64,000 nt of DNA from Camelus ferus (Eukaryota): NCBI RefSeq assembly GCF_009834535.1, contig NC_045696.1:60018001-60082000 (forward strand), in the 5' to 3' direction. The notes beneath the pieces are model-generated. The model was not told the origin of the DNA, ran no database searches, and worked only from the letters and a program-made list of their open reading frames with translations. Positions 16,536-61,669 of the stretch are shown here, one piece after another. Each line of letters opens with the position of its first letter. The stretch's first letter is position 1. A program made the position numbers and the translations under genes.

Positions 16536-16914
16536 CTAATAGTTGGGCGGTGGTGTACTAGCCTGGTCTGTATAGAGACTCTGTGGCTGACTGTCTTCGG
16601 AGAGGTTCAGCTTGACTCTAGGGAAGATGCTCCCATGTGCTCCGAGATTGAGGTTTCCATAGGGACCCTGTGGCTGACTGTCTTCAGAGAGGTTCAGCCT
16701 GACTCTGGGGAAGATGCTCCCATGTGCTCCGAGATTGAGGTTTGCATAGGGACCCTGTGGCTGACTGTCTTCAGAGAGGTTCAGACTGACTTTAGGGAAG
16801 ATGCTCCCATCTGCTCCGAGATTGCTAAAGCTGGTCATCTCCTGTAGTCTCAGATTTTGAAATTCATTCTCAACCAAGTTCTGTTCTTCCATATTCTTGC
16901 CTTTGATCTTTAAT
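16536..16914 (-). CDS. MUC13: MUC13 exon 11: cytoplasmic tail with triplicated 29-aa module and stop codon
   Basis: Acceptor gattacag|A at 16914; (R)LKIKGKNMEEQNLVENEFQNLRLQEMTSFSNLGADGSIFPKV... resembles the MUC13 tail; TAG stop at 16538-16536 directly followed by GTGAGT donor. Confidence 0.93.
16563..16823 (-). repeat. Coding tandem repeat, 3 x 87 bp (29 aa)
   Basis: ctgtggctgactgtcttc recurs at 16581, 16668 and 16755 (87-bp spacing). Confidence 0.95.
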
Positions 16915-18893: not shown

Positions 18894-18978
18894 CTTATCG
18901 AGAAGATGAATGCAGTCACTACACCGAGGATGAGGATGCCAGCAATGGTACCCACGATGGTGAGGATCAGCTGAAAAT
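18894..18978 (-). CDS. MUC13: MUC13 exon 10: transmembrane helix
   Basis: tttctctttcag| ... (N)FQLILTIVGTIAGILILGVVTAFIFSI(R) ... AG|GTATAG; 85 nt, phase 1 to 2. Confidence 0.95.
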
Positions 18979-19456
18979 CTGAAAGAGAAAAGAGCTGAGT
19001 AGGAGAGGCTCCCCCGAGCACACCTCCACTGCCTACTGCACAGGTGCATGCGTTCCCAGTGGGTCCTGGCCCTGAGGACAATCAGGCTGTGGTCTCTGAT
19101 GCCTCCAGGGCCAGGATGGAGGGTGGCCCACCTCCTTTAACCCTCTGTCCACCCACCCCCATCTGTGTCTTCAGAACTCAATCAGAAGAGACAGCCTTGC
19201 CAGATAAACCAAGACCATAAACACAAAGGAGGCCATGGTGACAGGACCCTCCTGGGCTTCGTGGTGGGTGGGATCTCATCTGAGGTCCACACACCTCCGT
19301 GCCTCTGCTGCCTGTGCCTGCCCATCGCTGACCTTGCTGATAAACTAGGGGAACCAGGTGGGGGTTAACTGTGCCAGTAACAGAGGATCCAGGAAATGGC
19401 CTGATGGAACCGGTGAGGGAAGAGCCTGGGGGTTCATTACCACCCATCCTCCTCTA

Positions 19457-19752
19457 GATCTGCTCTGTCTGGCACTACTGAGCCCTTGAAAAGTGGCCTT
19501 GGGCTGGCCTTTAAGTGTAACATGTGCAGCGGATTCTAAACACACAGTATGAAAAAAATGTAATCCATCTCATTAATAATTCCTAGATTAATAACCTGTT
19601 GAAATGATAATGTGTTCAATATCAAGCAAAATAAAATAATTAAAATCATTTTCACCTATTTCTTTTTACTTTTTACATTTTACTTAACACTTTTAAAATC
19701 TGAAATTAATTCTGCAGCTCATGTGCTGTGTCTGTTGGACGCTGCTGCTCTA
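19457..19752. mobile_element. MER3/MER33-like hAT-Charlie DNA transposon relic
   Basis: ctgctctgtc ... ttgaaatgataatgtgttc ... aaaatcattttcacctatttctttttactttt ... ttggacgctgctg. Confidence 0.5.
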
Positions 19753-20559
19753 ACCACTTGGATTTTTTCTTCTGCATGACTGCCCTGCGTATCACCTCCA
19801 ACCTCACTCACGGGGCCATCAACCATTAAGTCTAGGAAAAAACCCTCAAAGGTGATCTGGTCCGAAACTCTCATTTTATAGGTGTGGACACAGAAACCCC
19901 AGAAAGGAGAAATGATTTAGCAAACCCAGCCTCACAGCAAAAGATAGTAGGAATTGAAAGCATTTCTCATCACTAACTTTGTGGCTGGCTGAGAGACTGA
20001 CAGGGGTATTTCATTCATCACTGATCTTTTAATTCATTACATACAATTTCAAATATAAAATCATTTAACATATAAAGTTAGTATTGACCCCAACTGGTGG
20101 GAAAGAACTAAGCAACTGAATTTGCAACAACACATGCAAACTAAGAAATCACTCTCAGGCAGAAAAGATTTGAATATTTAACGTCTGTTTTCTAGTTCTG
20201 CTCTCCCATGACCACACATTTTTGGAAAACACTGGCCTTGGATCCTTTCTAGCAGCAGACAAGGTGTATTTAAGCTACTGTAGGAAGGAAACATAAGGTT
20301 GGGACTCCCTTCTTGGCCTGGGGCAAGTCCAGAGGCAGCAGCCCACGTGCTGGACTGACTTCTCTGATTTCTCACAGCAGAGGGGCCCTGCCCGAGACTA
20401 AGGGTGGGCATGGGATGGCCTGACCCAGAAGACAAACACAGGCAGGTTTTCTGTGTCTTTGAGAAACAGGCCCGAGACTTGGGGCACTGGACAGATTCTG
20501 AATGTGGTCAAGGTTTGTATCTCAGTTATTGAATAACAGAGCAAGACTTTTCTACTCAC

Positions 20560-20597
20560 TGTCTTTACAGCCAACTCCGCTGTAGCCAAATGCACAC
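20560..20597 (-). CDS. MUC13: MUC13 exon 9 (end of third EGF-like domain)
   Basis: tgtgtttcag| (P)CAFGYSGVGCKD(N) |GTGAGT; 38 nt, phase 2 to 1. Confidence 0.93.
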
Positions 20598-21060
20598 CTG
20601 AAACACAAGGAGCAGGAAACCGTGGTAAAGAGCCTTGTGGGAGCAGGCCAGACCTCCCACCCAACCTCCGTATGGTCCTTGCATCTCTTTCTTTATCCTC
20701 CCTGTTCCATCTTCTTTTCGTCATTTCTTTCTTACCCTCCCCATCTTCCTGGCTAAACCTGGAAGGTTGAGGGGGGCACACAATCCCACATGCTTCCATT
20801 TGCTACCATGAATGCTCATGCTGTGAGCACCAGGAGGATTCAGCAATTCAGGGGAGGCTGAGCCTGAGAGGCACGGAGCATAGCAGGACCCCCTCGGGCT
20901 GTGGGCCTACCTGGCCCTGCTGAATATTTGCTGCCCGGTGAGGTGGGGCACGTTATTTATATTCTTTGAGCTTCGGGTTCCTCACCTGAAAATGGGGACA
21001 GTGCTGTTGTGTGAGAAGAATTACCTAGTGTGGTTCCTAGCACACAGAGGATGTTCAAAA

Positions 21061-21326
21061 GCTGCTGCTGCTGCTGCTGATGGTGATGATGGTGGTAGTG
21101 GTGATGATGGTGATGATGGTGATGATGGTGGTGTAGCGGTGATTGTGATGGTGATGGTGGTGATGGTGGTGATGGTGGTGATGATGGTGGTGTAATGGTG
21201 GTGATGATGGTGGTGGTGGTGATAGTGGTGGCAGGGATAGAGGTGGTGTTGGGTGGTTGGTGGTGGTGGTGGTAACGACGATGGTTATGATGACGATAGT
21301 GATGATGACAGTCATGGTCATGATGC
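21061..21326 (+). repeat. Degenerate (GAT/GGT)n trinucleotide microsatellite in MUC13 intron 8
   Basis: Visible run of gct/gat/ggt triplets. Confidence 0.9.
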
Positions 21327-21451
21327 TCTGTACCTACCAGCTTTTGGCAGGAGCCAACACCCTGACCCTAAACTCATACATCTGTTACAAGCTCTATCCT
21401 TTTCGCTCAGCCTCAGCTACGGCAAGATGAAAAAGCAGTGTCTTCTCTTAC

Positions 21452-21581
21452 GGTTGACAGGCCCCGTGACTGTCCTCCCGGTAGCCCGGCAGGCACACGC
21501 AGTCCGCGCTCGTGCTGCTCCTCACTAAACATTGCCGCTTGTTCTCTGCGTTGCAGGTGTCATCGCAGGTTGGACCGAAGG
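21452..21581 (-). CDS. MUC13: MUC13 exon 8 (EGF-like)
   Basis: ctgttttgcag| (A)FGPTCDDTCNAENKRQCLVRSSTSADCVCLPGYREDSHGACQ(P) |GTAAGA; 130 nt, phase 1 to 2. Confidence 0.93.
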
Positions 21582-21910
21582 CTGCAAAACAGAGTGATTT
21601 CTGGGTAATTTTCAGACACAACCTCCTCCTATCCAAAGTGACATGTCACAGAATACAGTGTTTTTCACATTGCTCTTTCTAGGTAAAAGGAAGTGCTCAG
21701 TGGTCTGCACGTAATGTGCCCCCTGTGAAGCTGCACAAGGCTCTCCTCACTGGCTCTCAGCCAAGGCCCCACCCAGGTCCGTAGGTCTGCAGCCAACATT
21801 CCCACCCCTTAGACTCTGAAAAGCACATGGGAACTTGAGCAGGACAGTCTGTATTTTGAAAATGTATAAGGAGAGAGGAGAGGGACATTTAGAACCAAGG
21901 GAGCCCTTAC

Positions 21911-22036
21911 CGACACACATGGGGATCTGCGGGTTGGGCCTCACCAGCCCCTGTTTGCACTGACACAGTAAACCACTGGAGCAGTTGTCCTGGTCATTCT
22001 TCTTCTCACAACCATAGTAGTCACACCGGTCTTGCT
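21911..22036 (-). CDS. MUC13: MUC13 exon 7 (EGF-like)
   Basis: gcctctcag| (E)QDRCDYYGCEKKNDQDNCSSGLLCQCKQGLVRPNPQIPMCV |GTAAGG; 126 nt, phase 1 to 1. Confidence 0.93.
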
Positions 22037-23599
22037 CTGAGAGGCACACAGAATTCAAAGATGAATTAGGAAGACAGTATGGATAAGGTGACTTGTAAAG
22101 CACTCACTCAATTGTTGTGGTAATTGCTTTTTAATAGGTTTGGAATTTAACAAATAAAGACCTGAGACTCTAAAATTCAAGTCCCCAATCATTTCTTCTA
22201 TATCTATATCCTATATTACTCAATTCAAATTAATTCAATCCAATGCAGTACAGTTATGTTCAATTTCAAGACCTCTTTTGCACCTGGCTCTTTGCTGGAT
22301 TCCACAGGGGACACAGTAGCTGTGTAAGTTTCAGGCCCCATCTTTGTAGAGTTACATGACTGTCACATCCAGCAGCAGCCTTAGGAACAGTGGGAACTCA
22401 GGGGCTCGGGTAGCTAAAGGTCACATTGTGGAGGAGGTGGGTACTGGGCCAAGTGCTGAAAGATGGGGAAGATATGAACAGTCAAAGGAGAGACAAAATC
22501 TGTCGAAGTGCAGTAAGTGAGGCATGAAAAGAAGTGAAGGATTGTTGTCCGGGAGTGACGGAGTTGTACGTGGGCAGAAGAGAGGCAGAGAGGTGAGGAG
22601 GGAACGTCAGGATTTCTCAGCACTGCCGTTGATTGGCTGTGGGCTTCCTGTTCAATTATTTCATTGGTGGTGGGTCCACGTTCCCTCCATCTATGAACTA
22701 AGGCTAATGATTCTTGTTTCGTGTGATTGTTGCGAGAATTGAATGAGATCATGGAAATGCAAGTGTCCACTCAGCAAATAATCGTTGTTTTGTTCATTCA
22801 CAGGTAGAGCAGGGTTTGAACACAAGGCTAAGGACATTGATGTTTATCATATAAGCCTGAAAATCATTGGTCGATTTTGACCAGAAGCATGGCAGGAGGA
22901 AGCAATCTGGTAAGTACGTTAGTCTAGAAGCAGAGCGGAAGGCATTAGGGATAAATGGGGGAATGTGAGGATGGATGATGGGGAGGGGATAGGAGCAGGT
23001 AGAGCAGATACGTGCTCACTCTCTTCTAAACACCCCAAATCCATACCTGACCTTCCTTCATCACCTGCCCTTTCAAAATGCCTCCAATTAAAAGCTTAGA
23101 GAAAGAGATTCTATAGCTTTTGACACAGAAGAATCTGTCTTTGCAGCAGGAGCAAGAGAGCAGGAGAAGCTGTTTTTCTCCAGAAGTTTGGCACTCTCAC
23201 GTCCATTTGCTGGGCGGTTCATGCTCCTGTGGCCACCTCGAGCTGGCAGCATGTGGTATTTGCTAATGTATCTCAGAGTACGTGACTGGTCTCAGAGTGG
23301 GGAGATGCTGAGAGCAGCTGGTAAAGAAGAGCATTTCTCAGTCTGAGGCTGAACGGTTTCAATTTGGCCAGAGCTCAGAGCCAAGTAGAACCAAATGAGA
23401 GCACGGCAAAGGGTACTCAACTATGTCCTGAAGGGTACAATGGTTATTTTCATCTAGTACCCACTCTGAGCGGTCAGTCCCCATGCTGATGGGAACCCTC
23501 AACTTCCTCGCACTTGCTGGAGATCTCATCTAGCCCAAAGCAGAGCGTAGGATAAGGTTCTGTCTTGCCCTGCTGACAATTTCACCTTCCGGGGGAGAG

Positions 23600-24430
23600 G
23601 TTCTGACTGCATGAATTGCTACCCTCAGCCAAATTCTGACCCCAAGGAGAAATTTATCGGCAGGCAGAAGTGATGGGTCTCCCGGAAGACAAGGATCACG
23701 TGACAGCCAGAAAGAGGAGTGTGACTTAGAGTAAATGTTGACATGTTCAGAAAGGACAAGGTGTAGGTCCACGGCACGAGACTCTGGAAGATGAATGTAG
23801 AAGAGAAGGTAAGAAGCTCTGAAAATGTGATTATAACTGTGCAGCTGCAAATGATCCCAATAGATGTATAAAAAAAATACAGTGGGAGAGTGTCTGTAAC
23901 TTAAGAAACTGGCATGGTTTGCACAGAAGCTCTCAGATGAGAGACAGAAACAAAATATGAAAAGAAGGTCCTGGAACCAAAGATGGAATATTAAACATGT
24001 GACACAGTCTAGAGTCCCAAATGAGTTCAAGTTTGCCACAAGCAAAACCCAAAACAGCAGCAAGAGTCCAATGACACAGAGCAAAGGGTTAAACATGAAA
24101 AATGGGTAAATCAGTGAAGGGGTGTGTGTCTCTTCCACCAGGAAGTAATACTTGGATGGAAAAGAGTTGAATGGACATGGCTAAGGGAACTGAAGTCCCC
24201 GGAAAGAACACAGAGCAGAGCAGCCCCCATCATTCCTGACAAAAGTTTAAGTATTTTATTCCAGAGCATTTATATTCCAGGTCCTGAGAGAATAGTGAGA
24301 ATCTTTGTGGAATCTTGAAAAAAAGATAAAAGAGAGAGAGAGAAGGTGCCGGAAAACGATCGATGACCAGGATTTCTTTATATTTTCAAAAAGAGAAATA
24401 AATTTTGCAAACTAGGCCATGGAAGTTCCA
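23600..24430 (+). mobile_element. Probable ancient CR1/L3 LINE ORF2 relic
   Basis: ccaggtcctga (PGPD-like) followed by attttcaaaaagag...gcaaactaggccatg (IFKK...NYRP-like); very degraded, boundaries uncertain. Confidence 0.35.
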
Positions 24431-24789
24431 AACATCAAAAAGCAAACATTCAAGAGACAAAAAGAGGAGTCTTGGAAGGATCAAAAATGAGGATGAGGGA
24501 GTCGGGCAGGGGTCAAGGGAAGGTGGGGGGAGGCCCAGAGAGAAGACGACTTCAGGACGGGGAGGGCACCAGTGTCAGAGGCTACAGAGAAGTCAGAGAA
24601 ATTGTTCCTCAGCAGAAGCCTTTGGATTTGGTTGCCACGGGAAGAACCAGTTATAAAGAACTTCCCGCAGGCCAGCCGGCCCTAACAGCTCCCTCTGAGG
24701 GGAGGACCTCCTGAGGACGGCTGTGCTGGTTGCAGTCATAGTACCAGTTTACTCCTGCCTTCCTATCTACGCCCCTAGCAGCACCGGGC

Positions 24790-25185
24790 ACACTGTGTTT
24801 GGTCATGTGAACTGAGGACAGTTGTAAATCTAACATAAGCAGAAAGTGAGAAACACCTGTGTATTGAAACTTGCCCTCTTGCTGCTCTTGAAACTCTTTG
24901 GGACTAACCTGCTGGGGGATGAGAGACCACGTGGAGCAGGGACTAACCGTCCCGCTGAATCATCTGAGATCAACTGGTCCCCAGGAGGCCCACCCAGCAG
25001 CTAACGGCAGATGCCTAAGTGAGCCCAGCAGAGAGCAGCCAAGCTCCACCTAGGTCAGCAGAAGTGCCCAGCTGAGCTCAGCCCACATTCTGACCCAGAG
25101 AATCACGGTGCGGTAATAAATAAATGGTGGTTGTTTTAGGCCACTAAGTTTGGGGTGTTTGTAACACAGCAGAAATGAACAGTCA
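24790..25185 (+). mobile_element. MLT1-like LTR relic
   Basis: 3' end aataaatggtggttgttttaggccactaagtttggggtgtttgtaacacagca is typical of MLT1. Confidence 0.65.
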
Positions 25186-25595
25186 CAGCTCTGCTGTGGG
25201 CTTGTGTGTCTGCCTAGAGGAGAGCCAGTATAAGTAAAACTTTCTGTGAGCATTTGGAAAGCTCTAACTTGGTAGAGAGCCCTCTTTTTTCTCCTTCTTC
25301 ATCTTTCCATGTCCAGAGGCTATTTGTCCAAGACTACCTTCCAAGCAGAGGGACAAACTAGTCCATTTTTTGACTTAGGAGACAGTTAGGAAGGAGCAGA
25401 AGCCACGTGAGAGAGGAAAGGGAGGGAGGAAGAAAGGACGGTGCAAAGGAAACTCGTCTGTGGACGTCAAAGGACAGATGTCTGTGGATTCAATTACCCA
25501 GTTCTTCTGGCCCCCTTCACACAAATAATAGCAAAGTTTATGAAAACCTAGATAGGTCTTCAGGTAAATGTGGAATAAAATTATTTGATACTTAC

Positions 25596-25756
25596 CAGTA
25601 TATCCTGTAAAGACATCTGCATTGTCTTCAATTGCTTTTGTAATTGCATTAGATACTGTAGTCTCATTTAGTTCTGTAGTTTCCTTAAAGATGTTTACTA
25701 CTTCTATGTCAACATCCTTGTCACCAGCACGCAATTCAGATCTTGCTGCAGATGTC
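25596..25756 (-). CDS. MUC13: MUC13 exon 6 (SEA domain, C-terminal part)
   Basis: cagtcttag| (R)TSAARSELRAGDKDVDIEVVNIFKETTELNETTVSNAITKAIEDNADVFTGYT |GTAAGT; 161 nt, phase 2 to 1; an alternative in-frame AG lies 6 nt upstream. Confidence 0.9.
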
Positions 25757-28700
25757 CTAAGACTGAAATGAAATCATTACTTGATGAATTGAACTTAAGC
25801 TTCAACAAATAGGTCTTCAGACCTCCCAGACTCTCAAATCTCCCAGCACTAGTCCCAACCCACTGTTCTAAATCCACAGTTGAGGCCCACATAGGGAGAC
25901 CTGGGGTTGCAGTAAGATGGCAGTTCATAGCCCAGAGATCTCTATTCGATGTGCATTCAGAGGAAATCTATGGCTACAATAAGGTCCTGCTGGAAGGTAC
26001 GTAAAAACATTGTGGACAAACTTGTTTAGCATCTAGGAGCCCGGAGTGAACCAGAAGTAGAAGTTGCATCTGAAATAGGAAAGTGTCACTTTCTGCAGAA
26101 AATCAGGAGTACATTTCTTAACAACATGTAAAATCTCAGACTTGTGCTTTGAGAGAGACAGATGGGTGTGTGTTCCTCCCTGTGCACAGAGAGAGCAGTA
26201 ATCCACCACACAGAGTCTGGGTCATTCCCAGAAAAGGCCCAGGAAGCCAGCAGGCAGTTCAAAGTGCATGCAGATTGGGCCTGGGCACATAGGACCCAGA
26301 GAAGAACTGATCCCAAGGAGGGTGGGGCTGGGGGAAGCATCAGCATACAGCCCGACATCACATCCCCAGACACTAAGTCCTCCTACGACCAGGACATCGT
26401 AAGGGCCTCTCTCTCGAATCAGCGCTGCAATTTGGGGCCCTAAGAACAGCTGTGCCAAGTTCTGTTTCATTATCCAAAAGGAATCAAGTCACACAACCAC
26501 TGAGAGAGAGAGAGAGAGAAAAACGACTGTTAAAACCTGCTTCCCTCTCTGATTAGTGTCCGTGTTTTTTTTTAAGACTCAGGATCTATTTTTCCCGTCT
26601 AATTATTTTCCTGTATTCTCTTTTGACATCTGAATAAACACAGAAGCTTGAAAACATAGCCAGCCTGCTTGGGAAATGTTCACCGCCATGTGGGTTCTGC
26701 AGAACAATCAAGAAAAACCGAACATGAACCAAATTCTGCTTTTTAGGAATCATCCCATAAAAAGGGATTCCAAAACGAAAAATGGGCTTCTAATTCTAAT
26801 TAAAAGTTTCCTACAGTAATTTGCTCATAGTAGGATTTGAAGGCGGGAGTGGAAGGAACAGGGCAGTGAGAAAGGGGTACTTGACACAAGCAATTCTTTA
26901 TCGGTTGAAAGATGCCCAGAGATCCACGGTGTAACTCTGCAGTGGGGCTAGGGAAGAAATGCCGTCCATTATTCATTGATTCAGAGAACCTACTAGCACA
27001 CACCCCAAGTCAGGAGGCAAGACGTCCCACTCACAGAACATTTACAGGAAACACTGGAGCAGCCGCGCACTTACGCGACAAGAGGTGCAGAATGCAGGAC
27101 TACAGCGCGGCTTGCAGTTAAGCACCCAGGGATCGAGACCCAGGATGGACAGGACACCGTCTTCTGTGGCCCAAGACCAGTCCCAGCTTCCCTGAACCTG
27201 AGTGTCCTCCTCTGTCCAAACAGAGCTTCGAGTGTTTGAGAAACTCTGAGGATCCTTCTCATTCCAACATTTAGGCAGGAAATAAAAAGATCTTGGGGAA
27301 TCAGAGGCAAGGGCACTGGTCTGGAGTCTAAGAAATGCCTTTGAAAGTGAAACCAAGGTCCACGTGCCGGGCAGGGCCCCTGAGCTGAAGGGAGTCACTC
27401 CTCCCCAGGACACTGAGCTCACAGGTGAGGGGTTGCCTCCAAACACCGCTGGCTCCCTTTCAGTAACTTCTTAGGAATGACGGGAGTGCCAGAGCAACAG
27501 GGAACCCCCAGATGACCTTGTGGGGCCAGCTCTCCCTCACACTTGCAGGGTCTGTTATTCTGGACGGGAAACAGACAGGAACTAACATGTTTTGAAACTG
27601 ACTCTGTTCCAGGCACTTTGCACAGGGAATCTTCCCAAGGGTATCTCATTTGCTCCTCCCGGGGTTTCAAAAGTTGATTGGATTATCCCAGTTGTACAGA
27701 TGAAGTAATAAAAATTTAGAGAGGTTAAATCACCTGCCTAGTCACACAGCAAGTGGTGCCAAGGCCAGGATTCGAGTGTGGATTTAGCTGACCCCACCAC
27801 ACTGCACTGATCCTGTTTTTATCCAGTCATCCCGATGCACGAACTCCTTGTTTTCCCTTAAGCCAAACCTAATGCCCTGACAGTTGGTGGCTGTACCTCC
27901 AGCTTTGAGCCTCCACATCGGGGCTCAGCTCCCTGCCTGCCGCTTGCCCTGGGCCTCCTATTGGCTGCCTGCTGTCCTGGCCACCAATCATATGGGACCC
28001 TTGTTTACCGCCAAGATCAAAACGCACCAGCTTTAGGAGGTCTTCTCTGAATTTATATATATGAATGTATATATTGTACATTTTTCTAGTATGGATTTGA
28101 CAAAGCTTATAAAGATAGATGAGGTAGTAAAACCATAAAATACAAATACATTAGGGCTGCTTTTTCTGCATGACTCCGTTCACCTTAGAGCTGCCTTTCC
28201 CCGGCCTGCTGCACTTGTGTGTCAGCATGCTTCAGAGAAGGCCGAGATGGAATCACTGACTTTTTGAGGCTCCTCTGCCTTTTTGGGTTCCTTAGTAGCA
28301 CGTAACCCTGGTCATTGGATATTCATATGCTCACTGAATGCCTGTTCTTCCTGAAGAAAGAGCTCAGGACGGGCCCTTCAGTGGCCAGGTGTGTGCCTGG
28401 GGAACTCCTCTCTGCTCATTTCCCCCATGAGGGAAGAGACAGCCATGAGTCACTCATTGTGCTCCTGGCCCCCTGGAAGGAACATGGTTTGTAGCCAAGG
28501 GATCAAACCAAACAAACTGATGACTGGTGATGTCACGTGTGCACACTGCTGCGTTGCCAATCACAGGCAGCATCTTGCTGTTCCCAGGCTGCACCCTGCG
28601 CACCCATGCATGGCTCAGTGTGACATCAGAGGCTGGGCCCTCTGCAATGAGTGCTCTTCCTGACATGTGACTCGCCACCCTATGGCCTCACTGCCTCACG

Positions 28701-28779
28701 GGGAATGCCAGAGAAGATGGGAAGATAGGCATACACACACCTGCTTCCAAAGTTCCCCTTCAGTCCACAGCAAACTTAC

Positions 28780-28835
28780 CTTATTTTAACAATTACAGTC
28801 TGTCCGTAATCAGAATTGTTAAATGCCTTTTTAAA
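28780..28835 (-). CDS. MUC13: MUC13 exon 5 (SEA domain)
   Basis: ttttcctccacag| FKKAFNNSDYGQTVIVKI(R) |GTAAGT; 56 nt, phase 0 to 2. Confidence 0.92.
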
Positions 28836-29438
28836 CTGTGGAGGAAAAGAACAGATTTAATAACTACAAAGAGGGGGGAAATGTGATACTGTATCTATGT
28901 TTTAGCATAAGTCCATTTCTAAACTCATTTATACAAATAATACAGCAAATTATTTATTCTTTACATACGCTCTAACACCTTTCAGTAAGTTTTGCTTTGA
29001 AATAGTAAGATTCTGATATAATTCAGAGCTACCCAGGAAAAAGCAGGAAACCTAAAGCACTCAGTCTAATCAATGATCACACTCTTAAAAATCAGCTGAC
29101 TAACTTCAGTTTTGTCTTATCAAAGCCACGGTGAAGTTCTGCAAGTCTGTTACACTTACCTGTATGCAAACTTCATACACTCATCATTTATCCAGGAACA
29201 CATAATTGCCTGCCTTCCCAGGGCGTCAGGCCAGGAACACGGAGATGACCAAGGTGGGCAGAACCAGCCTGAGAGCCAATGGGGGCTACACCATGAACTT
29301 GAGTGAGGGGAGCACCACAGAGAGTATGATCTACCCTGGGCGTTCAGAGAAACTCCCTCCAGGCTGCAGAGAAGCAGAGCGAGCGGCACAAAGGAGAGCA
29401 GCCTTCCAGCACTTCAGCGGGTGGTGCGGGGCCAGGGC

Positions 29439-29608
29439 GCGGAGGGAGCGGCAGCGCGGAGGGAGCGGCAGCGCGGAGGGAGCGGCAGCGCGGAGGGAGC
29501 GGCAGCGCGGAGGGAGCGGCAGCGCGGAGGGAGCGGCAGCGCGGAGGGAGCGGCAGCGCGGAGGGAGCGGCAGCGCGGAGCGAGCGGCAGCGCGGAGGGA
29601 GCGGCAGC
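29439..29608 (+). repeat. GC-rich minisatellite, 10 x 17 bp (GCGGAGGGAGCGGCAGC), in MUC13 intron 4
   Basis: Ten near-identical copies read directly; one has a single G>C change. Confidence 0.95.
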
Positions 29609-32363
29609 CCGGGCCGGCCTTCAGAGGTGGCGGGGCTCAGAGCGGAGCGGGCTCAAGTGCCACCTTTCTCCCCCTGTCAGCTTTCTTTGAACCTCGCTGT
29701 CTGACTGGGAAGTGTGAGATAGCAGTAATTTCCACCACCCAAGGCCGCAGGTGTAGACGAGGAGGGGGAGTAAAGGATCGTGGCTTTGTGCGCTGGAAGG
29801 GGCTCCAGCACAGGTAGATCTTGCTAGGCTCGAGTTGTGTCCCAGGAGCAGAGACAACTCTAGAAATTTATACAGACGTGGCCAGAGGTAAAGCTGGGAC
29901 TCTGGCAGGGGTGAGGGGATGGGTGTCCCAATTAGAACATAAGTTCTTTGATGACACAAATGAGATTCATTTTCTGTTTCTTAGGACACAACCCCCCTCC
30001 CGCCTGCTCACCCCTATCCTCGTCCCACAGCGCCCAACACCAGGCAGCCCCCAGGAAACACCCACACCAGCTGACTGATGACTGAGGGAATTAAATGTGA
30101 AAGTCATGACCTTGGACGTGTCTTCTCCTTTTTGGGCCCCAGTCTCCATGTTTATTACATGAGTGTTGAACTGGGTTGGTGCAACTGTTTTAGAATCCAA
30201 GAATTTTATTATTTTTCTCCCACGGGGGCCCTACATTTTAAAAGATCTTGGCAACCAATGTCACTTAGAAAGATGTTAGAACATTTCTCTTTCATTCTAG
30301 TCAAATCCAAATAAATTTGATGCTCTCCTTATTCTGGGCAGCCTTATATCTGGAATATGTCAGATTCCTTTTCAATTCTTTTAAATATTAGGAAGGGCTG
30401 GTATTTCTGTAAACCATCAGGGCCCCAGGTATCTACTTGAAAAAAGTTCACTGAATGACCTCCAAGTTTCCATCATCTCCCCTACTGACCACTGCCCATT
30501 TAATTTCCTTAATCTCAAAGAAGAGATTGCAAAATTAGCATCTGCCATTGGAAAAGGGTTTCCATTTTTCCCTCTTCCAGGCCACCCTTTGAGGATTTGG
30601 GGATATGCACCTCTTCAGCGGAAGGGCTGCAAGGCTGGGCAGGAGGGCAGGAGTTATCCAAACAGGCCTGCCGGCTTCCACTGCACAGCAGAGCCAGCAG
30701 GGAAGGAGAAGCAGCTCCGTGGTCAGGCAGGTCTGGGTTCACATCCCCCCACCCCGTCCTCACTCATCAGCTGGGCGACCTTCGGCCAGTTACTCAGCCT
30801 TCCTGATCCTTGACTACCCACCTCACCTGCAGAACAGTTCCACAGCACCGTCTCCCCCATGTGGCGATTTTGAGAACTAGAAATATTATGCATAAAATGC
30901 CAGGTACAGCAGCAGTAGGGAAACTTCAAAACCCTGTGCAGACTGTCCCTTTGAATCTATCTGGGGACAAAAAGGACCCTGGGAGACGTCTCAGGGCCTG
31001 AGCTGGCACTGCCCTGGCTATAGAGTCTGCTAAGTGGACCTGGAAGAAAGTAAATGTCTCTCTTTCCCCACCTCTAGTTGTTGCAAAGGAGTTTTGGTGC
31101 TTCCCTTTCAGATTGATAGCCTCTTAGAAATTACAAGAGTGCTCTAGCCCTTCCTGCTTCCCCAGGATCATTGAGACCTGCCTGAGATCAAGTCACTGAA
31201 CTAGACTCTGAAGCCCGGGGCCTAGGCCTGTAGCCAGAGGGGGTTTTGGACACTCGTACTCAGAGCAAGTTGGGAAGTGCAGTGGCCACAGTGGCCAGAG
31301 ATTGGTAAAGCCACACAAGACCATCAGGGGTTCCCTGGAAGCAGGAACACACTGGTGTTACTGTCCTCAATGTAGCACGTATCATGCAAGCGGGGATTTG
31401 GAATGTAGACCCAGGGTGAGAGGCTAAGTCCGTCCAGCTGGCCCCTGGTGCACAGGTGGTGCAGCAAAGGGGCAGGGCAAGCCCGGGGCACCCGGGCATT
31501 GCTCACAGTGCCTGGCACCGGCTGTTTGCTTGTAAGCACTCACTCTGTCTGTACCATCTGTAAATCATTTGGATAATAATTTTTCACGTTTAACAAATTC
31601 TAATAACAAAATTCTTTTGTAATGTTATAATTTCAAATTGAAAGACATTGACATAGAGTAAGATTTTAATTTTTAACATCTTACTAGAATTCTAAGATGT
31701 ATTTACAAGCTAACATTTTCTTCTTCAAAACCAAACTTTGAGAAATACTGGCTGGAGGCCCTAAGACCTTCCAGATCTGACAGCAGTTGGTCCAGAATGA
31801 AGATCTCCATCTCTCCATGTTGACATTCTTACTCACAGTAATCAAAATGAAACGAAGCTATTGTTCATTTTGACATTTTTGAACATGGGAAAATGAAATA
31901 ACGGATGTTAAGTCAGATGGAGTTCCTCTTCCAGATGTTAAAAAAGCCAGACAAGCACAGGAAAATGTGCAAATTTGATTGTAAAAAGAAAAATATCTTT
32001 AAATTTTTTTCCCTTCAAGACTATGAAAATAATTTATTTTAAAGCATCATTACATTTATCTGTCCATTTAAAAATATTTTAATAGCCTCTGTAAGAATGA
32101 GTATGGCATGGCCGCCAGGTGTAGGGGCAGGGGTGCGGGGACCAGGGCCCCAGAGGAGGAGCCGGGCAACCAGGAAGCAGTGACACCCGGGAGCTGGGGA
32201 CAGTTACTGTTTACCAGCCAATAAGGGTGCATTTCTCTGTTTGAACCACTGGTACAGCCACACCCATGTGAACCACCTGAATGTCATTCTCTAGTTAGAG
32301 AGAGAATAGTCAGTGTTAGAATAAAGAATATCTGTATGGAAAAGATAGTTAGAAAATACTTAC

Positions 32364-32470
32364 AAATTCAGTAATTTCAAAATGTAATTTTTGATAGGCC
32401 ACAGAATTTTCATCTTTCAAGTCCTCTATATTTGATGTTTTGAATGTAATTGTACCAGGGAATATCTTTC
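32364..32470 (-). CDS. MUC13: MUC13 exon 4 (SEA domain, N-terminal part)
   Basis: gaatttcag| (G)KIFPGTITFKTSNIEDLKDENSVAYQKLHFEITEF |GTAAGT; 107 nt, phase 1 to 0. Confidence 0.93.
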
Positions 32471-33658
32471 CTGAAATTCAAGCAGAATATTTCTGTGATA
32501 CTTAATGTAAAAAGGGCCATTTCCATTTTGTTTAAAACATAGATTATTGTAAAAAAATTCTAAACTTATGAAGATACTACTGGAAGTATGGGAATACGAA
32601 AAACATTACCCCCTATTTCTCCCAGCTCTGTTTTTTTTCTGTGCCTGGTTTACATCGTTATAGCTCCAATATATATCACGAGTCTTCTTTACTTATTATT
32701 ACATAATAAACATTTTTCCAGATTATTACTTAGGCTTTGCAACTATCATTCTAAATGCTATATAGTATTCTATGAAATACATGTTCCCTCCATTGATTTT
32801 TTTTAGTGCTTTTAATTATTTAAAAGGGAAAAAAAGCTTGCAGTGAACGTCTTCATACACAGAGCTTTCTATTTTGGAGGTCATTTACTTAGAGTGCACC
32901 CTCAGAAATGAGATTATTAGTGCTTAAGATAGGACATCCTTCTGCGTTTTGGTATATCTCTAATCCCTGTGGCCAGTACAGTTCATTCATGTCCTATAGA
33001 GTTGGTCTGCTCTGGGAAGGAAGGGTATTTCTCATTCAGAAAACAGATCCACATTTATAAATCAGTAAACAGCCTTGGACTTTCATAGCAGTCAGCTGGT
33101 CTAACCAAAAAAGTGTAGTGCTGATTTGCTCCTAAAGTCCGTTTCTAGAGCTGAGAAGCTCTTAAGTCTCCAAAAATAGGGTTTGGTGTTTGGAAGAAGC
33201 AAATCCTATGACAACACAGAACAGGACCAAGGTCAGAGCCGAAGTAGCCCGGCTTGTCTGGCTGAGTGGTTTTAGGCATACGGCCTTATTCTGTATCAGA
33301 GGAGCCACGGAGCAGCACCACCCTGTGTTTATGCAGCCTTTGTACTTTGTCAGGGACTTCAGCACCTCTCATTCTCATTTTGACCCCATGGCACCGTTCC
33401 TTGAACTGTGAGGTGAAGGGACACATGCACTCCTGTACCTTCAGGACTAGCTCCCAGGTCTGACTCGGTCCATTTCCTCTCCCACTAGGTCCCAGTGAGA
33501 TAAAGACAGGTGCCTCTTCTCTACTTGGTGGGGCTTTGTGGCCTCCAAATTTGCCTCTACCTTTAGAATTCTGGAGGCTCTTTTCACCATCATCTTAAGT
33601 TTTCTATTCCATTTAGGTCTGAGGTGCAGGTCTACATGGTTCATCCCTTGTCACTCAC

Positions 33659-33781
33659 CTTTACTGCATGTGGAAGAGTTATAGTATTGCCCTTCTGGAC
33701 ACAGGCAGAAAAATGTATCATTCAGACTCACACACGAAGAACCACCCTTACAGGAATCCTCTTGGCAAGGGTTGGTGGGAC
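33659..33781 (-). CDS. MUC13: MUC13 exon 3 (first EGF-like domain)
   Basis: ccattgcag| (G)PTNPCQEDSCKGGSSCVSLNDTFFCLCPEGQYYNSSTCSK |GTGAGT; 123 nt, six Cys, phase 1 to 1. Confidence 0.95.
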
Positions 33782-34699
33782 CTGCAATGGAGTAGAAAGA
33801 GATTAAAAATCCATAGATTGACAACAAATAACACTCAGAAACATACTTTTAAACCTTCATGCCTCCCTCCCAGGCACTTTCTGTTCGTTAGCTGTGTTAT
33901 TCCATGGTACCCTCTTAGAACAGCTAGAAACAAATACATATTTTCTTACGTCTCTAGGAAGTTTGTTGCTAAAATTCTGGAGCCAAGCGCTTGTCAACAG
34001 TAAAGGTCAGAGTCTGGTGGGTAAGAGTCTGCTCAGAGAGGGGTAGCAGCCTTCTAACTGCAAGGAGTACGGAAATATGTTGGACCTCAAGGATCCTCCA
34101 GAACCTTGACGTCTGGTCCTCCAGCACTAGGTAGGGCTCCCACAACCATTTTAGAGAAAGCATCGTATTTTTTCAGGAAGATGTGAATAGCTCAATTACA
34201 GGGAAGACCAGGCAGGACGCTCCAAAAAGAAGCTATTCTATTCTGGTTAGCATCATGGCATACAGACCCAGGAAGAAAGGAAAGGGATAGTAAGGGAACA
34301 ATGTGGATTAACTCAGTGAACATTCCAAGAGCAAGCAATGCGGGGACACTCCACCCTCTGGCTTTCTGAGTGGATGACCTGAATAAATGGTGAGAAGAAT
34401 GTTACAGTGGTCTCTGCACCACTGGCCAGGACTCCAAGACAAGGCCAGGTGCAGCATCCTTCCTATCTCTGTAGAACTGATGGGACCCGAGAAGGGAAGA
34501 TAGGTCACTGGCCAAACGGTGGTCTTGGCTAGCCACTTTCTTCATCTCTGTCCACTGAAATGATTCTGAGCTTTGATTTCAGAATAGATCATGTGACTGA
34601 CAACCTCCAGAGCTGTCTTAAGATTCACATGATCCTATAGGTGAAAATCACTGCTCTTAAGAAAAAGCTGTGTATAAGCTACAATGTGTACAACATGGT

Positions 34700-35478
34700 C
34701 TCTTTTCTTATTGAAGTACAGTTGATTTACAATATTATAATTTCAAATGTACACTACAGTGATTCAGTATTTTTGTAGATTATACTACATTATAAGTTAT
34801 TATAAGATAATGGCTATAATTCCCTATGCTATATCATATATCCTAGTTGCTTATCTATTTTATAGATAGTAGTTTGCATCTGATAATCCCATACCCCTAA
34901 TTTGTCCGTCTCCCTTTTGTTAACCACAAGTTTGTTTTCTATATCTGTGAGTTTGTTTTTGTTTTGTATATGCATCATTTGCATTATTTTTTAGATTCCA
35001 CATATAAGTGATATCATACAGCAGTTGTCTTTCTCTGTCTGACTTATTTCACTTAATATAATGCCCTCCAAGTCCATCGACATTGCTGCAAATGGCAGAA
35101 CTTCATTCTTTTTATGGCTGAGTAATATTCCATTGTGTATGTGTGTATATATATAAAAATATATAATGTATATGTATAATATATAATGTATGTATATCAT
35201 GCATTTTATAAATATATATATGTGTGTATGTGCGTGTATATATCTCTCTCTCACATCTTTATCCAATCAGCTGTTGATGGGCACTTGGGTTGCTTCCATG
35301 TCTTGGCTGTTGTAAATAATGCAGCTATGAATATTGGGGTCCTTGCATCTTTTTGAATAAGTGTTTTTGTTTTTTCCAGCTATATACCCAGGAGGGGAAT
35401 TGCTGGATCATATGGTAAAACTAAAAACAGAACAACTATATGATTCAGCAATTCCACTCCTGGGCATGTATCTAGAAA
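34700..35478 (-). mobile_element. 5'-truncated L1 (3' end) with a short inverted 5' segment
   Basis: Minus-strand L1 3'UTR/ORF2 end (ORF track NGILLSHKKNEVLPFAAMSMDLEGIILSEISQTEKD) to about 35417, then a plus-strand L1 piece 35418-35478. Confidence 0.8.
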
Positions 35479-35744
35479 TAACATGCTTTGTTTTATGATA
35501 AAGGAGGGGACTACATACAAACATACAAGTGTATATGTTTGTATTTGCCCAAACACAAGCAGCTGGCCACAGAAGCTGCCTCTGGGGAAAGAAACTGGGG
35601 TCCTGTATCCTAGGGGTTTAAGATGGGAAGGAGATTTAATTTTTACTGCATATACTTTTATTCTTTTACTTTAATTAAATTTAAGCTTCTTTTCCCATAA
35701 CTCTGGACCTAATGTAGTTTTATTTTAAAATGAAAAATAAAATA

Positions 35745-36570
35745 GTGCTGGTGAGGAACTCTTATATTGGCAGGAATGTTAAATGGTACAGCCACTTTGG
35801 AAGATAGGTTGGCAGTTTCTTACCAAACTAGATGTACTCTTACCATGTGACCCAGCAAGTGCCGACCTTAGTACTCACCCAAGGTAAATACTAAATATTA
35901 ACTTTGTATTTACCACAACTCACATCCGCTCATAAACCTGTACACTGATAGCAGTTTTATTCAAAATCACCACAACTTGGAAGCAACCAAGATGTCCATT
36001 AGTAGGTGAGTGGATAAACAAACTGTGGTACAGCCACACAATGGAAAATTATTCAGTGTTCAGTCTCGAAAAGACATAGCGAAATGTTAAATGCATATTA
36101 TTCAGTGAAAGAAGCCAATCTGAAAAGGCCACATACTGTGTGAATCCAACTACATGACACTCTGAAAAAGGAAAAACTATGGCAACAGTAAAAAAGGCCA
36201 GTGATTGCCAGGGGTTAGCTGGAAGGGAGCGGTGAATAGGCAGAGCACAGGGGATTGTTAGGAAAGTCTTTATGAACATAGCCTTTATGAAACCATAATG
36301 ATGGATACACATCTTCTACATTCATCCAAACCTATAGAATATACAACACCAGCAGTAAACCCTCATGTGAACTGGACTTGGGGCAACTATGATTTGTCAG
36401 TGCAGATTCATCAGTTGTCACAACTGTACCCTCTGGTGAGGGATGTTAATAATGAGGGAGGCTATGCAGGCATAGGAGCAAGGAATACAGGAAATCTCTG
36501 TACCTTCCTCTCAATTCGGCTGTGAGTCTAAAACTGCTCTAAAAAGTAAAGTCTATCTAAAAAGAATTTT
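35745..36570 (+). mobile_element. Old L1 (L1MA/MB-type) 3' fragment
   Basis: aaatggtacagccactttggaaga ... aacttggaagcaaccaagatgtcc ... taaaactgctctaaaaagtaaagtcta. Confidence 0.8.
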
Positions 36571-37330
36571 TTTAAGAGTGAAGAAAAATCAGGCTCCATG
36601 CAACACAGGAGGCATAATGCAGTGTCTCATAAACAATGTAAGGCTCTCCCCTCCAACCAGGTGTAAATCAATATTCTAAGGAAAGTAAATAGCTTTTTAA
36701 ATAAGCCTCAGCTACGCTGCAAGGATAATTTGGAAAATCCTAGGGAAGAAACTGAGTGCAGCACCCTTCTGGACACACTGGACAGACAACTCCCTGCATG
36801 CTTTCTTCCTGGCAATAAAGGACAGACTTGTTAGCTCTTCTGTGTCTGGGAATAAAGTCACATGATGTTACAGTGTGAAAGGGATTTGGGAGGCTATTTA
36901 GTTCAATCACACCTGATTACAGATGAGCAAGTAGAGGCCAAGAGAGAAATGATTCGCCCTGCACCCCACAGTAGTGAGTGTAGGGCCAGAACACAGATTG
37001 CCTTACTCAGGGGGGTGGGGGCATAAATGGCGTAGAAAAGCTGCTTTTCCTGATCACGGGATTTGTGTAGCTGCCTTCAGAGTGGCTCCTCCTGTCATGA
37101 AAGAAGACTGGGAATCCGGTTGTGACACATGCTCTGCCTCCATTTGCTTAATCATCCATATCTTAGATCTATCCAAGAACATTAGGGAAGCCAAAGAAGT
37201 AAGCGTAGGGAGACATCAATTGTTTTTTGACTTTGGGCAACTTGCCGCCCTCACTGGGCCTCAGTTTCCCTTTCTGAGAATAACAGTTTATCTAGACCCT
37301 TTTCGCAAAGGTTTGAGGATTCTTTTAGAC

Positions 37331-37555
37331 CAGGGGCTGGCAAACTCTCACTCAGGAGCCAATAGTGGCCAGTCTTCTGTTTTTCTTCTAAAGTTTTATT
37401 GGTACACAGTCAGGCACATTCATTTATATATTGTCTACAGCTGCTTTGATATTAAAATGGTAGAGCTTAGTGGCTGTAACAGAGACCTCATTGTGGCCCA
37501 CAAAACCTAAAATATTTACTAGTTTGCCTTCACTGATAAAACTTGCTGACCCTTG
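37331..37555. mobile_element. MER58-like hAT-Charlie DNA transposon
   Basis: TIRs caggggctggcaaact / aacttgctgacccttg; 8-bp TSD-like flanks ttttagac / ctctagac. Confidence 0.75.
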
Positions 37556-38219
37556 CTCTAGACCAAGTTTTGGGAAATGAGGCAAGTGGTTTCTGTTTCA
37601 GTAACTTTGGCTTGAGGTCAATTGTCCTCTCTTAGTACCCCCAAACACCCATCCTCTGGACCATGGCTCTGCTCACGTCTAGGACGAGGACTGAGCACTG
37701 CTGTGGTTTGGCTTTTTATCCCTCAAATTCCAAATTGCGATCAGCTACTTTTGCAATGTCATATTTCTCAATAGCACTTGGTCAGGAACCGGGGTAGCAC
37801 TGACTCCTTCCTTCAGGAGACCAGGGATCTAGACCAGTGGGGCTGGAGAGTCAGTGCTTATTAGGACCTGACCTTCTCAGAGAAGCTGAAACTATTTCCA
37901 AAAATCTCCTAGGAAGACAGAATCTGGAAAAGCAGATTTTCTGAAGTCCAAGTTCATAAAAATATTCCCCATCTGGCAAATTGCTGGAGGAAAGGAAAAC
38001 AGAATAGACCTACAGGCAACCTTGTAGCATCTCTGTCATCGCTCTTAGTCTTTGTGACTGCAGACTTTTTAACTCTAGAGTTTCGTATCCAAGGAAACCT
38101 TGAGTCACTTCACAAGCACTTCCCAAGCACTTCCCTACTACATGAGAACACACTTACCTACCATCCATCACAGTGCTGTGACTCCTCACTGAGGAGTCTT
38201 TCCTGGAATTGCTCTTAAC

Positions 38220-50200: not shown

Positions 50201-51531
50201 AGGGCTCGATGCCGTGTTGCCTGCAGCCGCCGTGGTGCTGTGAGCCTCCGTGGAGGGAGTAGCAGGGCTCGATGCCGTGGTGCCTGCAGCCGCCGAGGTG
50301 CTCTGAGCGCCCGTAGAGGATGGAGGAGAGGTTGATGCAGTGGTGCTCTGAGTCCCCGTTGAGGAAAGAGGAGGGCTCGATACCGTGGTGCCTGCAATCA
50401 CCGTGGTGCTGTGCGCACCCGTGGAGGAAGGAGGAACGCTCGATGCCGTGGTGTCTGCAGCGGCCGTGGTGCTCTGAGCCACAGTGGAGGGAGTAGCAGG
50501 GCTCGATGCCGTGTTGCCTGGAGCCGCCGTGGTGCTCTGAGCTCCCGTGGTGGAAGGAGGAGGTCTCGATGCCGTGGTGCCTGCAGCCGCCGTGGTGCTC
50601 TTTGCCACAGTGGAGGAAGGAGGAGGGCTCGATGCCGTGGTGACTGTAGTCGCCGTGGTCCTCTGAGCTTCCGTGGAGGAAGGAGGAGGGCTCGATGCCG
50701 TGGTGCCTACAGACTTCGTGGTGCTCTGAGCCACTGTGGAGGGAGTAGCAGGGCTCGATGCAGTGGTAGCTGCAGCTGCGGTGGTGCTCTGATCCGCCGT
50801 GGAGGGAGTAGGAGAGCTTGATGCCATGGTGCCTGCAGCCACTGTGGTGCTCTTAGCCCCCGTAGAGGATGGAGAAGGGGTTGATGTAGTGGTGCTCTGA
50901 GTACCCGTGGAGGGAGTAGCAGGGCTCGATGCCGTGGTGCCTGCAGCCGCCGTGGTGCTCTGAGCCCCCGTAGAGGAAGGAGGAGGGCTCGATGCCGTGG
51001 TGCCTGTAGCCACCGTGGTGCTGTGAGCACCCGTGGAGGAAGGAGGAACGCTCGATGCCGTGGTGTTTGCAGCGGCCGTGGTGCTCTGAGCCACCGTGGA
51101 GGGAGTAGCAGGGCTCGATGCCGTGTTGCCTGCAGCCGCCGTGGTGCTCTTTGCCACCGTGGAGGGAGGAGGAGGGCTCGATGCCGTGGTGCCCGCAGCC
51201 CCCGTGGTGGGAGGAGGAGGGCTCGATGCCGTGGTGCCCGCAGCCCCCGTGGTGGGAGGAGGAGGGCTTGATGCTGTGGTGCCCGCAGCCCCCGTGGAGG
51301 GAGGAGGGCTCGATGCTGTGGTGCCGGCACCCCCTTTGGAGGGAGGAGGAGGGCTTGATGCCGTGGTGCCGGCAGCCCCCGTGGTGGGAGGAGGCGGGCT
51401 CGATGACGTGGTGCTGGCAGCCCCCGTGGAAGAAGGAGGAGTGTTTGATGTTGAATTGCCTGCAGCCCCTGTGGAAGAAGGAGGGATTGATGTGGTGAGG
51501 CTTGTAGCAATTATGGTGGGAGGTCTATTCG
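38220..51531 (-). CDS. MUC13: MUC13 exon 2: giant PTS mucin domain (about 4,437 codons), with one +1 frameshift at about 38760 in this sequence
   Basis: Acceptor tttgttcctccag|CG at 51531 is in phase with exon 1; 4374-aa ORF 38447-51571 plus ORF 38215-38727 carrying the repeat end; phase-1 donor CAG|GTTAAG at 38220 (alternative AAG|GTAATT at 38304); length 13312 = 3n+1. Confidence 0.9.
38320..51500 (-). repeat. Coding VNTR of 63-bp (21-aa, TTAAAGTTASSPPPSSTGAQS-like) and 45-bp (15-aa) units in higher-order blocks
   Basis: Read directly; near-identical out-of-frame ORFs recur at 45956, 46757, 47621, 48341, 49376, 50411 and at 40916, 41717. Confidence 0.97.
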
Positions 51532-59335: not shown

Positions 59336-59387
59336 CTGAGATTAGAAAAAGGAGGGCAGGCAGAGTGAGGTGACTGAAGGCTTTCAT
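59336..59387 (-). CDS. MUC13: MUC13 coding exon 1 (signal peptide)
   Basis: ATG at 59387; MKAFSHLTLPALLFLIS; 52 nt then CAG|GTAAGG donor, phase 1. Confidence 0.93.
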
Positions 59388-59439
59388 TCTCTATGTTCTT
59401 GCTGGGTAATCCGGGGAGAAAATGACTTCCCTCCTACTG

Positions 59440-59510
59440 TCTTTCCTTTTAACTCTCTCTCAGGTTCAAAGTCCAGTCATTAACTGATGTCAATCCAGTC
59501 AAAGGCAATT
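59440..59510 (-). promoter_or_regulatory. MUC13 proximal promoter: TATA-like TTAAAA, HNF4-type DR1 and HNF1-like site
   Basis: GGTTCAAAGTCCA (59463-59475) contains the HNF4 motif CAAAGTCCA; adjacent GTTAATGAC on the minus strand; TTAAAA about 60 nt upstream of the ATG. Confidence 0.55.
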
Positions 59511-61650: not shown

Positions 61651-61669
61651 TATAAACCACTTTTATGGA

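Follow-up and report, generated by a model that had tools for sequence, protein, structure and literature searches.

Among the closest described systems is the MUC13 gene of other mammals, which the locus reported here resembles in exon order, in its SEA and EGF domains, in its transmembrane (TM) helix and tail core, and in its ITGB5/HEG1 neighborhood; in those mammals, the cytoplasmic tail is about 66 residues long, contains a single core with rare exceptions and mostly ends in DY. MUC1 is also comparable, as a transmembrane mucin with tyrosine motifs for adaptor binding and endocytosis: according to a review (PMC4202122), AP-1/AP-2 binding requires its Y20 and Grb2 binding its Y60, both tyrosines being important for endocytosis. 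Paired receptors (KLRC/NKG2, PIR, Ly49, and CEACAM1 with CEACAM3) are described as tandem genes whose outer domains are homogenized by conversion and whose tails differ (PMC3210942, PMC2832619). In an artiodactyl, the pig, two MUC13 forms with distinct PTS regions, MUC13A and MUC13B, are reported as alleles of a single-copy gene, and the authors connect them with adhesion of E. coli F4ac (PMC3440394), the F4ac locus being placed proximal to MUC13 in a later paper. Finally, exon 5 in the genes for red and green opsins is a diverged coding exon between homogenized flanking introns, and a divergence peak of this kind in a coding exon under conversion is presented as a sign of selection (PMC3924837).

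In Camelus ferus, one MUC13 gene (copy A) departs from the MUC13 plan of other mammals: its tail has three cores and 126 residues, with two YxxL motifs, LV in place of LI and no NPY, and it has an adjacent paralogue (copy B). The window, i.e. the whole 64,000-nucleotide stretch of DNA that was analyzed, contains copy A on the minus strand, with the following features.

16823-16737, minus strand: tail repeat unit 1 (U1), NLGADGSIFPKVSLNLSEDSQPQGPYANL, with YANL at 16748-16737; seen in unit-specific contigs.
16736-16650, minus strand: tail repeat unit 2 (U2), NLGAHGSIFPRVRLNLSEDSQPQGPYGNL, ending in GPYGNL, with YGNL at 16661-16650; seen in a unit-2-specific contig, 16668-16737.
16649-16563, minus strand: tail repeat unit 3 (U3), NLGAHGSIFPRVKLNLSEDSQPQSLYTDQ, ending in SLYTDQ; recognized by comparison with copy B.
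16914-16536, minus strand: exon 11, encoding the stop codon and all of the tail except the first residue; delimited by splice contexts and RNA exon 10-11 junctions.
16872-16889, minus strand: EEQNLV, a motif of the acidic dileucine type in which copy A has V in place of I; camelid A rows read LV and B rows LI.
16539-16550, minus strand: C-terminal PPNY, matching the PPxY pattern; alpaca reads PPEY, and dromedary RPNY, without the pattern.
18894-18978, minus strand: exon 10 (TM helix), strongly diverged from copy B.
20560-33781, minus strand: exons 3-9 (EGF, SEA, EGF, EGF), near-identical to copy B.
38304-51531, minus strand: exon 2, which contains the PTS repeats in a single open frame of 4,383 codons.
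59336-59387, minus strand: coding part of exon 1, signal peptide MKAFSHLTLPALLFLISG.
53600-57100 (intron 1) and 63200-64000 (upstream), plus strand: fragments with ORF2-like and ORF1-like translations, which we take to be LINE-1-like.

The repeat is clear-cut. Tandem Repeats Finder recognizes, at window 16572-16824, a period of 87 with 2.9 copies, 93% matches and no indels. Exon 11 encodes LKIKGKNMEEQNLVENEFQNLRLQEMTSFS, then three 29-residue units, then ASTPPPNY and the stop codon: the three 87-bp units are all in frame within one exon, which has a good AG acceptor and a GTGAGT donor directly past the TAG. U3 has the register of the original single unit, the original C-terminus coming right after it. 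Per 87 bases, U1 and U2 differ at 5 positions, U2 and U3 at 10, and U1 and U3 at 11. U2 is a mosaic, U3-like at unit positions 12, 31 and 38 and U1-like from position 50 on, which is the product expected of an unequal crossover in a two-unit ancestor. The dN/dS ratio between units is about 1, i.e. the changes between them fit neutrality. The RefSeq protein XP_032337379.1 (P0001, mucin-13-like, Camelus ferus) has an identical tail, with a 100% match to the window frame. A first-pass annotation had recognized MUC13 and a triplicated tail module from the sequence, and had put the tail at about 126 residues with additional Ser and Tyr; all of this is borne out, since the tail measures 126 residues against a median of 66 (126 rows measured) and contains 14 Ser and 4 Tyr, compared to 8 and 2 in human.

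Sequencing data support the three unit types. Of 24 runs, 14 contained at least half of the sampled words, and four DNA and four RNA-type runs were compared to the window. Contigs specific for unit 1, unit 2 and unit 3 were recovered with no differences in all four DNA runs (organisms A and B, four studies). The repeat is therefore unlikely to be an assembly artifact, an explanation that we reject, and the reads do not reduce to the single copy that the first-pass annotation had named as the outcome that would go against it. In three of the DNA runs, the contig ends (16650; 16668-16737; 16755) are the unitig ends computed for a three-unit sequence with k=31, and in run X1 a single contig connects mid-U2 with U1. 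Such short-read contigs show three unit types and not a count: two- or four-unit forms, or a 2/3 heterozygote, add no new 31-mers.

Exon 11 is spliced to exon 10 in contigs of three of the four RNA-type runs (X16, X17 and X19). In X16, RNA pieces lie across both unit junctions, consistent with three units; X17 (depth 102) and X19 (depth 5), which come from two studies of organism A, each contain a contig matching the computed two-unit form, the match consisting of six differences (three of them listed by place) and a loose end. Alternative splicing was rejected as the source of the two-unit RNA: the repeats hold no GT/GC-AG pair 87 nucleotides apart. Contig sets of the same kind retained the unit-2 loop in DNA runs. 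The likeliest reading, to which we give a good measure of confidence, is that these contigs stem from a real two-unit allele; assembler simplification or template switching is possible. The copy-number polymorphism that the first-pass annotation proposed to look for thus finds an exact two-unit form in two of the four RNA-type runs, the DNA contigs showing three unit types without an exact count. Unit copy number probably varies, and the third unit is probably dispensable, a two-unit form with one YxxL motif being expressed in two of the four RNA-type runs.

At this place, the sequence FPKV-I-KLNL stands in the models of both dromedary (XP_064333070.1) and alpaca (XP_072826895.1). A 171-nucleotide GT-AG intron running from U1 (16786) to U3 (16616) reproduces this VIKL junction exactly, including the extra Ile, which a plain crossover would not; the 171-nucleotide skip is used by none of the three RNA contigs that span its donor. 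We infer that dromedary and alpaca each have at least two units, hidden behind a predicted intron in the RefSeq models. Short camelid exon-11 proteins were absent from the 930 candidates, so the alpaca and dromedary unit numbers follow from gene models. With at least two units in both species, the first duplication would predate the camel-alpaca split, dated to 'more than 11 million years' (PMC13751797).

To place the tail among its relatives, we used a census of rows P0001-P0127, made up of a first search in full, the best 120 of 130 second-search matches and cluster members (P0128-P0169 were excluded); three rows without an anchor were dropped and six camelid rows set aside, and rows are not species. 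A single core is present in 117 of the 118 non-camelid rows, the exception being a fusion of two whole genes; an ancestral and widespread multi-copy tail, the other outcome foreseen as adverse by the first-pass annotation, is not what these rows contain. The core, NLGAxGSIFP[KR]V, is the best-conserved stretch of the tail (best columns over 113 rows: N 94%, G 89%, A 97%, F 100%, P 100%, K 95%); it lies within the unit and is now present three times. Shorter tail duplications have occurred elsewhere: NPYxN was doubled by one in horse and rhino, and repeats of NPYSQ occur in one bat row and of FSNS in cricetid rodents.

YANL, at tail position 57, and YGNL, at position 86, fit the Y-x-x-bulky hydrophobic pattern of AP-2/AP-1 signals (the YxxPhi and [DE]xxxL[LI] dileucine sorting consensus is given in PMC6912373). 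Among the 115 non-camelid rows that have the tyrosine, 111 read NPY, 50 have YxN (one of them at a neighboring Tyr; 31 read PYAN) and none has YxxPhi, which occurs elsewhere in the tail in 9 of 114 non-camelid rows. Thus YxxL is new at this tyrosine, as had been proposed, and its leucine, judging from the rows compared, is a novelty of the unit junctions. About 25% of the tail residues are bulky hydrophobic, so a junction YxxPhi can arise by chance. YAN and YGN in copy A also match the Y-x-N pattern, which is the GRB2 SH2 docking consensus. The duplication did not create this motif, as had been supposed, since YxN is present in the 50 rows just mentioned and in camel copy B, and was merely doubled; human lacks it, as do the pig, ruminant and whale rows. 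MUC1 has two separate, tested motifs, whereas in copy A the predicted YxN and YxxL motifs fall on one tyrosine, present twice by virtue of the repeat.

Other motifs of the copy A tail have been altered. The dileucine pattern [DE]xxxL[LI], matched in 115 of 118 non-camelid rows, is kept in copy B as EEQNLI and reads EEQNLV in copy A of all three species. NPY is lost in all three A units; copy B retains it together with the dileucine and has lost its last nine residues. The tail ends in DY in 104 of 115 non-camelid rows, and this conserved terminal Asp is changed in copy A. PPxY, found in none of the 118 non-camelid rows, is a WW-ligand pattern; a YAP1/WW link was considered and rejected, the terms 'WW domain' and 'PPxY' having no occurrence in the paper that connects MUC13 with YAP1. 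The human tail contains a predicted PKC site, RITASRDSQ (10.1101/2022.10.27.513982), which aligns with the acidic LNLSEDSQ: as far as this site is concerned, the multiplication of Ser phosphosites suggested by the first-pass annotation did not take place. NPxY and PP1 patterns are absent from the copy A tail, and a PDB search with the tail gave two matches (E 0.54 and 0.87), neither a relative. The HEG1 tail resembles that of MUC13, and it is the terminal Tyr-Phe of HEG1 that binds KRIT1 (PMC3461514), but MUC13 lacks this Phe and we do not claim a KRIT1 link. The first-pass annotation had overlooked the paralogue pair with the repeat in one copy, the dileucine and NPY changes in that copy, and the two-unit RNA form.

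The repeat region has three genome matches: the window (copy A), a one-unit paralogue, copy B, located about 96 kb further along (minus strand, L003:1447-1651) and a gap-flanked near-copy (copy C). The copy B tail stops after NPYSN, nine codons short of the old end. Annotated A-type tails exist in C. ferus, dromedary and alpaca, and B-type tails, with the same truncated end, in C. ferus, dromedary and Bactrian camel; the MUC13 proteins found include no B-type tail for alpaca. Note that the Bactrian B-type protein (P0127) has two RefSeq accessions for one sequence and so possibly represents two B loci or two transcripts. Copy C is a 29-kb piece (G000:C1:64,024,320-64,053,413; L029-L032) lying between two gaps 4 Mb away. 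It has three units, differs from the window by about 1%, carries many 1-bp indels, including in exons 7, 8 and 11, and outside exons 10-11 frequently agrees with copy B. Most likely this piece is a second haplotype that was misplaced, a third paralogue being possible; contig depth taken as its copy number gave inconsistent ratios and was not used. At window position 16832, where T/C determines Ser or Gly in EMT[S/G]FSN, the window and six runs have T, and copy C, X15 and X16 have C; the residue is Gly in the dromedary and alpaca models.

Copy A has the MUC13 architecture, with a signal peptide, a PTS exon, EGF-SEA-EGF-EGF domains, one TM helix and a tail with the conserved core. The gene order ITGB5-MUC13-HEG1 is that of other mammals, with the start of ITGB5 at window 1219 and the last exon of HEG1 beyond copy B, both located by means of short motifs. 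A second HEG1 last coding exon lies between copies A and B (G000:C1 ~60,113,900-60,114,050, L007, compared to ~60,191,200, L014); it has an open frame and a stop codon, differs at a few residues and retains the terminal RRRDYF. The PTS exon has 4,383 codons in copy A versus about 0.7 kb in copy B. In the assembly, the end of exon 2 in copy A is put out of frame by a single extra base near 38764, and the RefSeq protein P0001 crosses part of the PTS exon around it in the wrong, His/Gly/Cys-rich frame. The 10-mer at 38764 occurs once and seems to combine two 9-mer variants that are common (86 and 14 copies), so the extra base is likely an assembly error. That this base breaks copy A, the tripled tail never being translated and the repeat reflecting pseudogene decay, is very improbable even with the frameshift near 38764 and the wrong frame of P0001 in its favor, as the base is the sole break in about 13.2 kb and sits in that odd 10-mer, exons 3-11, whose splice sites are canonical, are intact, and spliced transcripts are present, one at a contig depth of 102. 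Copy B exon 8 (~G000:C1:60,135,200, L009) has a 1-bp insertion in the assembly, possibly an error, the dromedary and Bactrian B proteins reading through.

Identity varies from about 80 to 98% between parts of the duplicated block, which speaks for an old duplication and for patchy conversion. Two mucin-13-like proteins are present in gray whale, and in an unnamed protein two MUC13-like units are joined (P0018, P0126, P0009); MUC13 may have undergone more than one duplication in mammals. Around exon 1 and upstream (window 59000-61659), A and B diverge by 7-11%, compared to 0-1.6% in intron 1, which hints at different promoters and expression for the two copies.

The two copies are alike in their outer domains and unlike in their tails. 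Between A and B, ectodomain exons are 0-1% apart (about 2 differences in 615 bases for exons 3-7 and 9), versus 20-25% for exons 10-11. In 500-bp bins, divergence is 0-3.2% across 19,000-38,000 and 19% in the exon-11 bin; 100-bp bins peak at exon 11 (17-24%) and exon 10 (12-17%), with two patches of 9-15% in intron 10, and the intron just downstream of exon 11 is 0-2% from copy B. Exon 10 has no indel able to block conversion. At the protein level, the ectodomains (about 205 residues) of camel A and camel B show 1-3 differences and those of alpaca A and camel 11-13; in the TM and tail, A and B differ at 34-36 of 86 residues, and dromedary A and alpaca A at 4 of 96. Ectodomain and TM-plus-tail trees, built from 26 rows chosen from the matches, disagree accordingly: in the former, camel A and B are closer to each other than to alpaca A, the camel-only clade having modest support (81/67), and in the latter the A clade, including alpaca, has 100/99 and the B clade 100/100. 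Gene conversion has likely homogenized the outer domains of A and B, to judge from these comparisons.

Whether selection kept the tails apart is a matter of weighing. With the repeat collapsed to one unit, exons 10-11 have a dS of about 0.32 and a dN of 0.26-0.28 between A and B (dN/dS about 0.8); about 17 of 63 synonymous sites differ, versus 116 of 1972 sites in intron 10 (Fisher p=2e-7, linked sites being counted as independent). Positive selection by dN/dS is not supported: exons 10-11 show no excess of nonsynonymous change between A and B (Fisher p 0.76-0.85), and relaxed constraint therefore fits as well as positive selection. The two intron-10 patches at 9-15% show that old non-coding sequence can survive conversion. 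For the opsins the selected residues are known, whereas the target of selection in camel MUC13 is inferred.

The reading we put first, with somewhat less than even confidence, is that the repeat lengthened the tail of one paralogue whose TM and tail exons were kept apart amid conversion of the outer domains, and that the new YxxL motifs are predicted AP-2/AP-1 signals, which would give copy A a trafficking unlike that of its twin. An old segmental duplication would have given two tandem MUC13 genes; a first unit duplication would have occurred before the camel-alpaca split, a third unit would have been added by unequal crossover, and some animals would later have contracted to two units, selection holding the two tails apart. 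Copy A would thereby have traded a weakened dileucine for two YxxL motifs on tyrosines that also fit YxN. Its tail is likely unfolded, and within this predicted unfolded segment AP mu-subunits would bind YANL and YGNL when unphosphorylated; once phosphorylated, the same tyrosines could bind GRB2 instead, like the pair of tyrosine motifs in MUC1.

There is a substantial, though minority, probability that the expansion was near-neutral: the copy A tail was relaxed, its unfolded segment tolerated duplication, units drift between two and three by unequal crossover, and the YxxL motifs are by-products of the junctions, any selection falling on the transmembrane or juxtamembrane part. The dN/dS ratios (about 0.8 for the two paralogues, about 1 for the units) agree with this, as do the alteration of the conserved NPY, dileucine Ile and terminal Asp in copy A, the expression of a two-unit form, the crossover mosaic in U2 and the recurrence of small tail duplications in horse, rhino, bats and cricetid rodents. 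It accounts less well for the fact that all units keep the frame with the stop intact, for an A-type tail nearly constant between dromedary and alpaca (4/96), and for exon 11 having remained unconverted while the adjoining downstream intron is 0-2% from copy B.

It is improbable, in our judgment, that the repeat serves signaling avidity and not uptake, the tripled core and the doubled ancestral YxN strengthening recruitment of GRB2 or of core partners and acting on tight junctions or MAPK. The repeated unit does contain the best-conserved columns of the tail, NPYxN was doubled in horse and rhino too, and deletion of the human tail is reported to alter tight-junction composition (10.1101/2022.10.27.513982); yet YxN is not essential, since human and the pig, ruminant and whale rows lack it, the basic PKC-type site has disappeared, and the literature searched names no partner of the core.

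Returning to altered sorting, the giant PTS exon lies on the same copy as the extra sorting motifs. This pairing is a single case and may be a coincidence; it is suggestive because recruitment to clathrin structures is reported to drop more than fivefold with longer MUC1 repeats (PMC10104535). A wider proposal, rather unlikely as a whole, is that the camelid mucins form a paired-receptor-like pair in which a converted SEA-EGF core is carried either on a short PTS region with a clipped tail or on a giant PTS region with a tail rewired for removal (two YxxL motifs, and PPxY in wild camel and alpaca), the signals offsetting the steric barrier to clathrin uptake; growth of the two ends would then be coupled, and two- and three-unit alleles would form a dose series. 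The likeness in sequence to paired receptors lies in the tandem arrangement, the homogenized outer domains and the differing tails. The camel pair differs from them in that these are mucins and not Ig- or lectin-type proteins, that the PTS exons differ about 18-fold in length, and that neither the A nor the B tail matches ITAM (6-12 residues between YxxL motifs), ITIM, ITSM or acidic hemITAM patterns; the YxxL tyrosines of copy A are 29 residues apart. Unlike the pig alleles, camel A and B are tandem genes that differ in the TM and tail.

Published work on the MUC13 tail, its duplication, camelids and internalization (mostly open literature) contained no report of the repeat or of the gene pair, and papers on MUC13 and camel, judged by title or the start of the abstract, included none on camel MUC13. 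Tandem repeats within exons and partial conversion have each been described before; a mucin pair that combines the two appears not to have been. In addition, a predicted intron appears to conceal the repeat in the RefSeq models of dromedary and alpaca.

What the MUC13 tail binds matters, as tail deletion changes tight junctions (10.1101/2022.10.27.513982), and the human variant p.Arg503Ser, beside the same tyrosine, has been tied to iron uptake. Long mucin repeats are reported to hinder clathrin uptake (PMC10104535), so that the joint presence of a giant PTS exon and extra sorting motifs is directly testable. Camelids offer a natural experiment, in which near-identical SEA-EGF domains are carried on one-, two- or three-unit tails that split the ancestral motifs between them.
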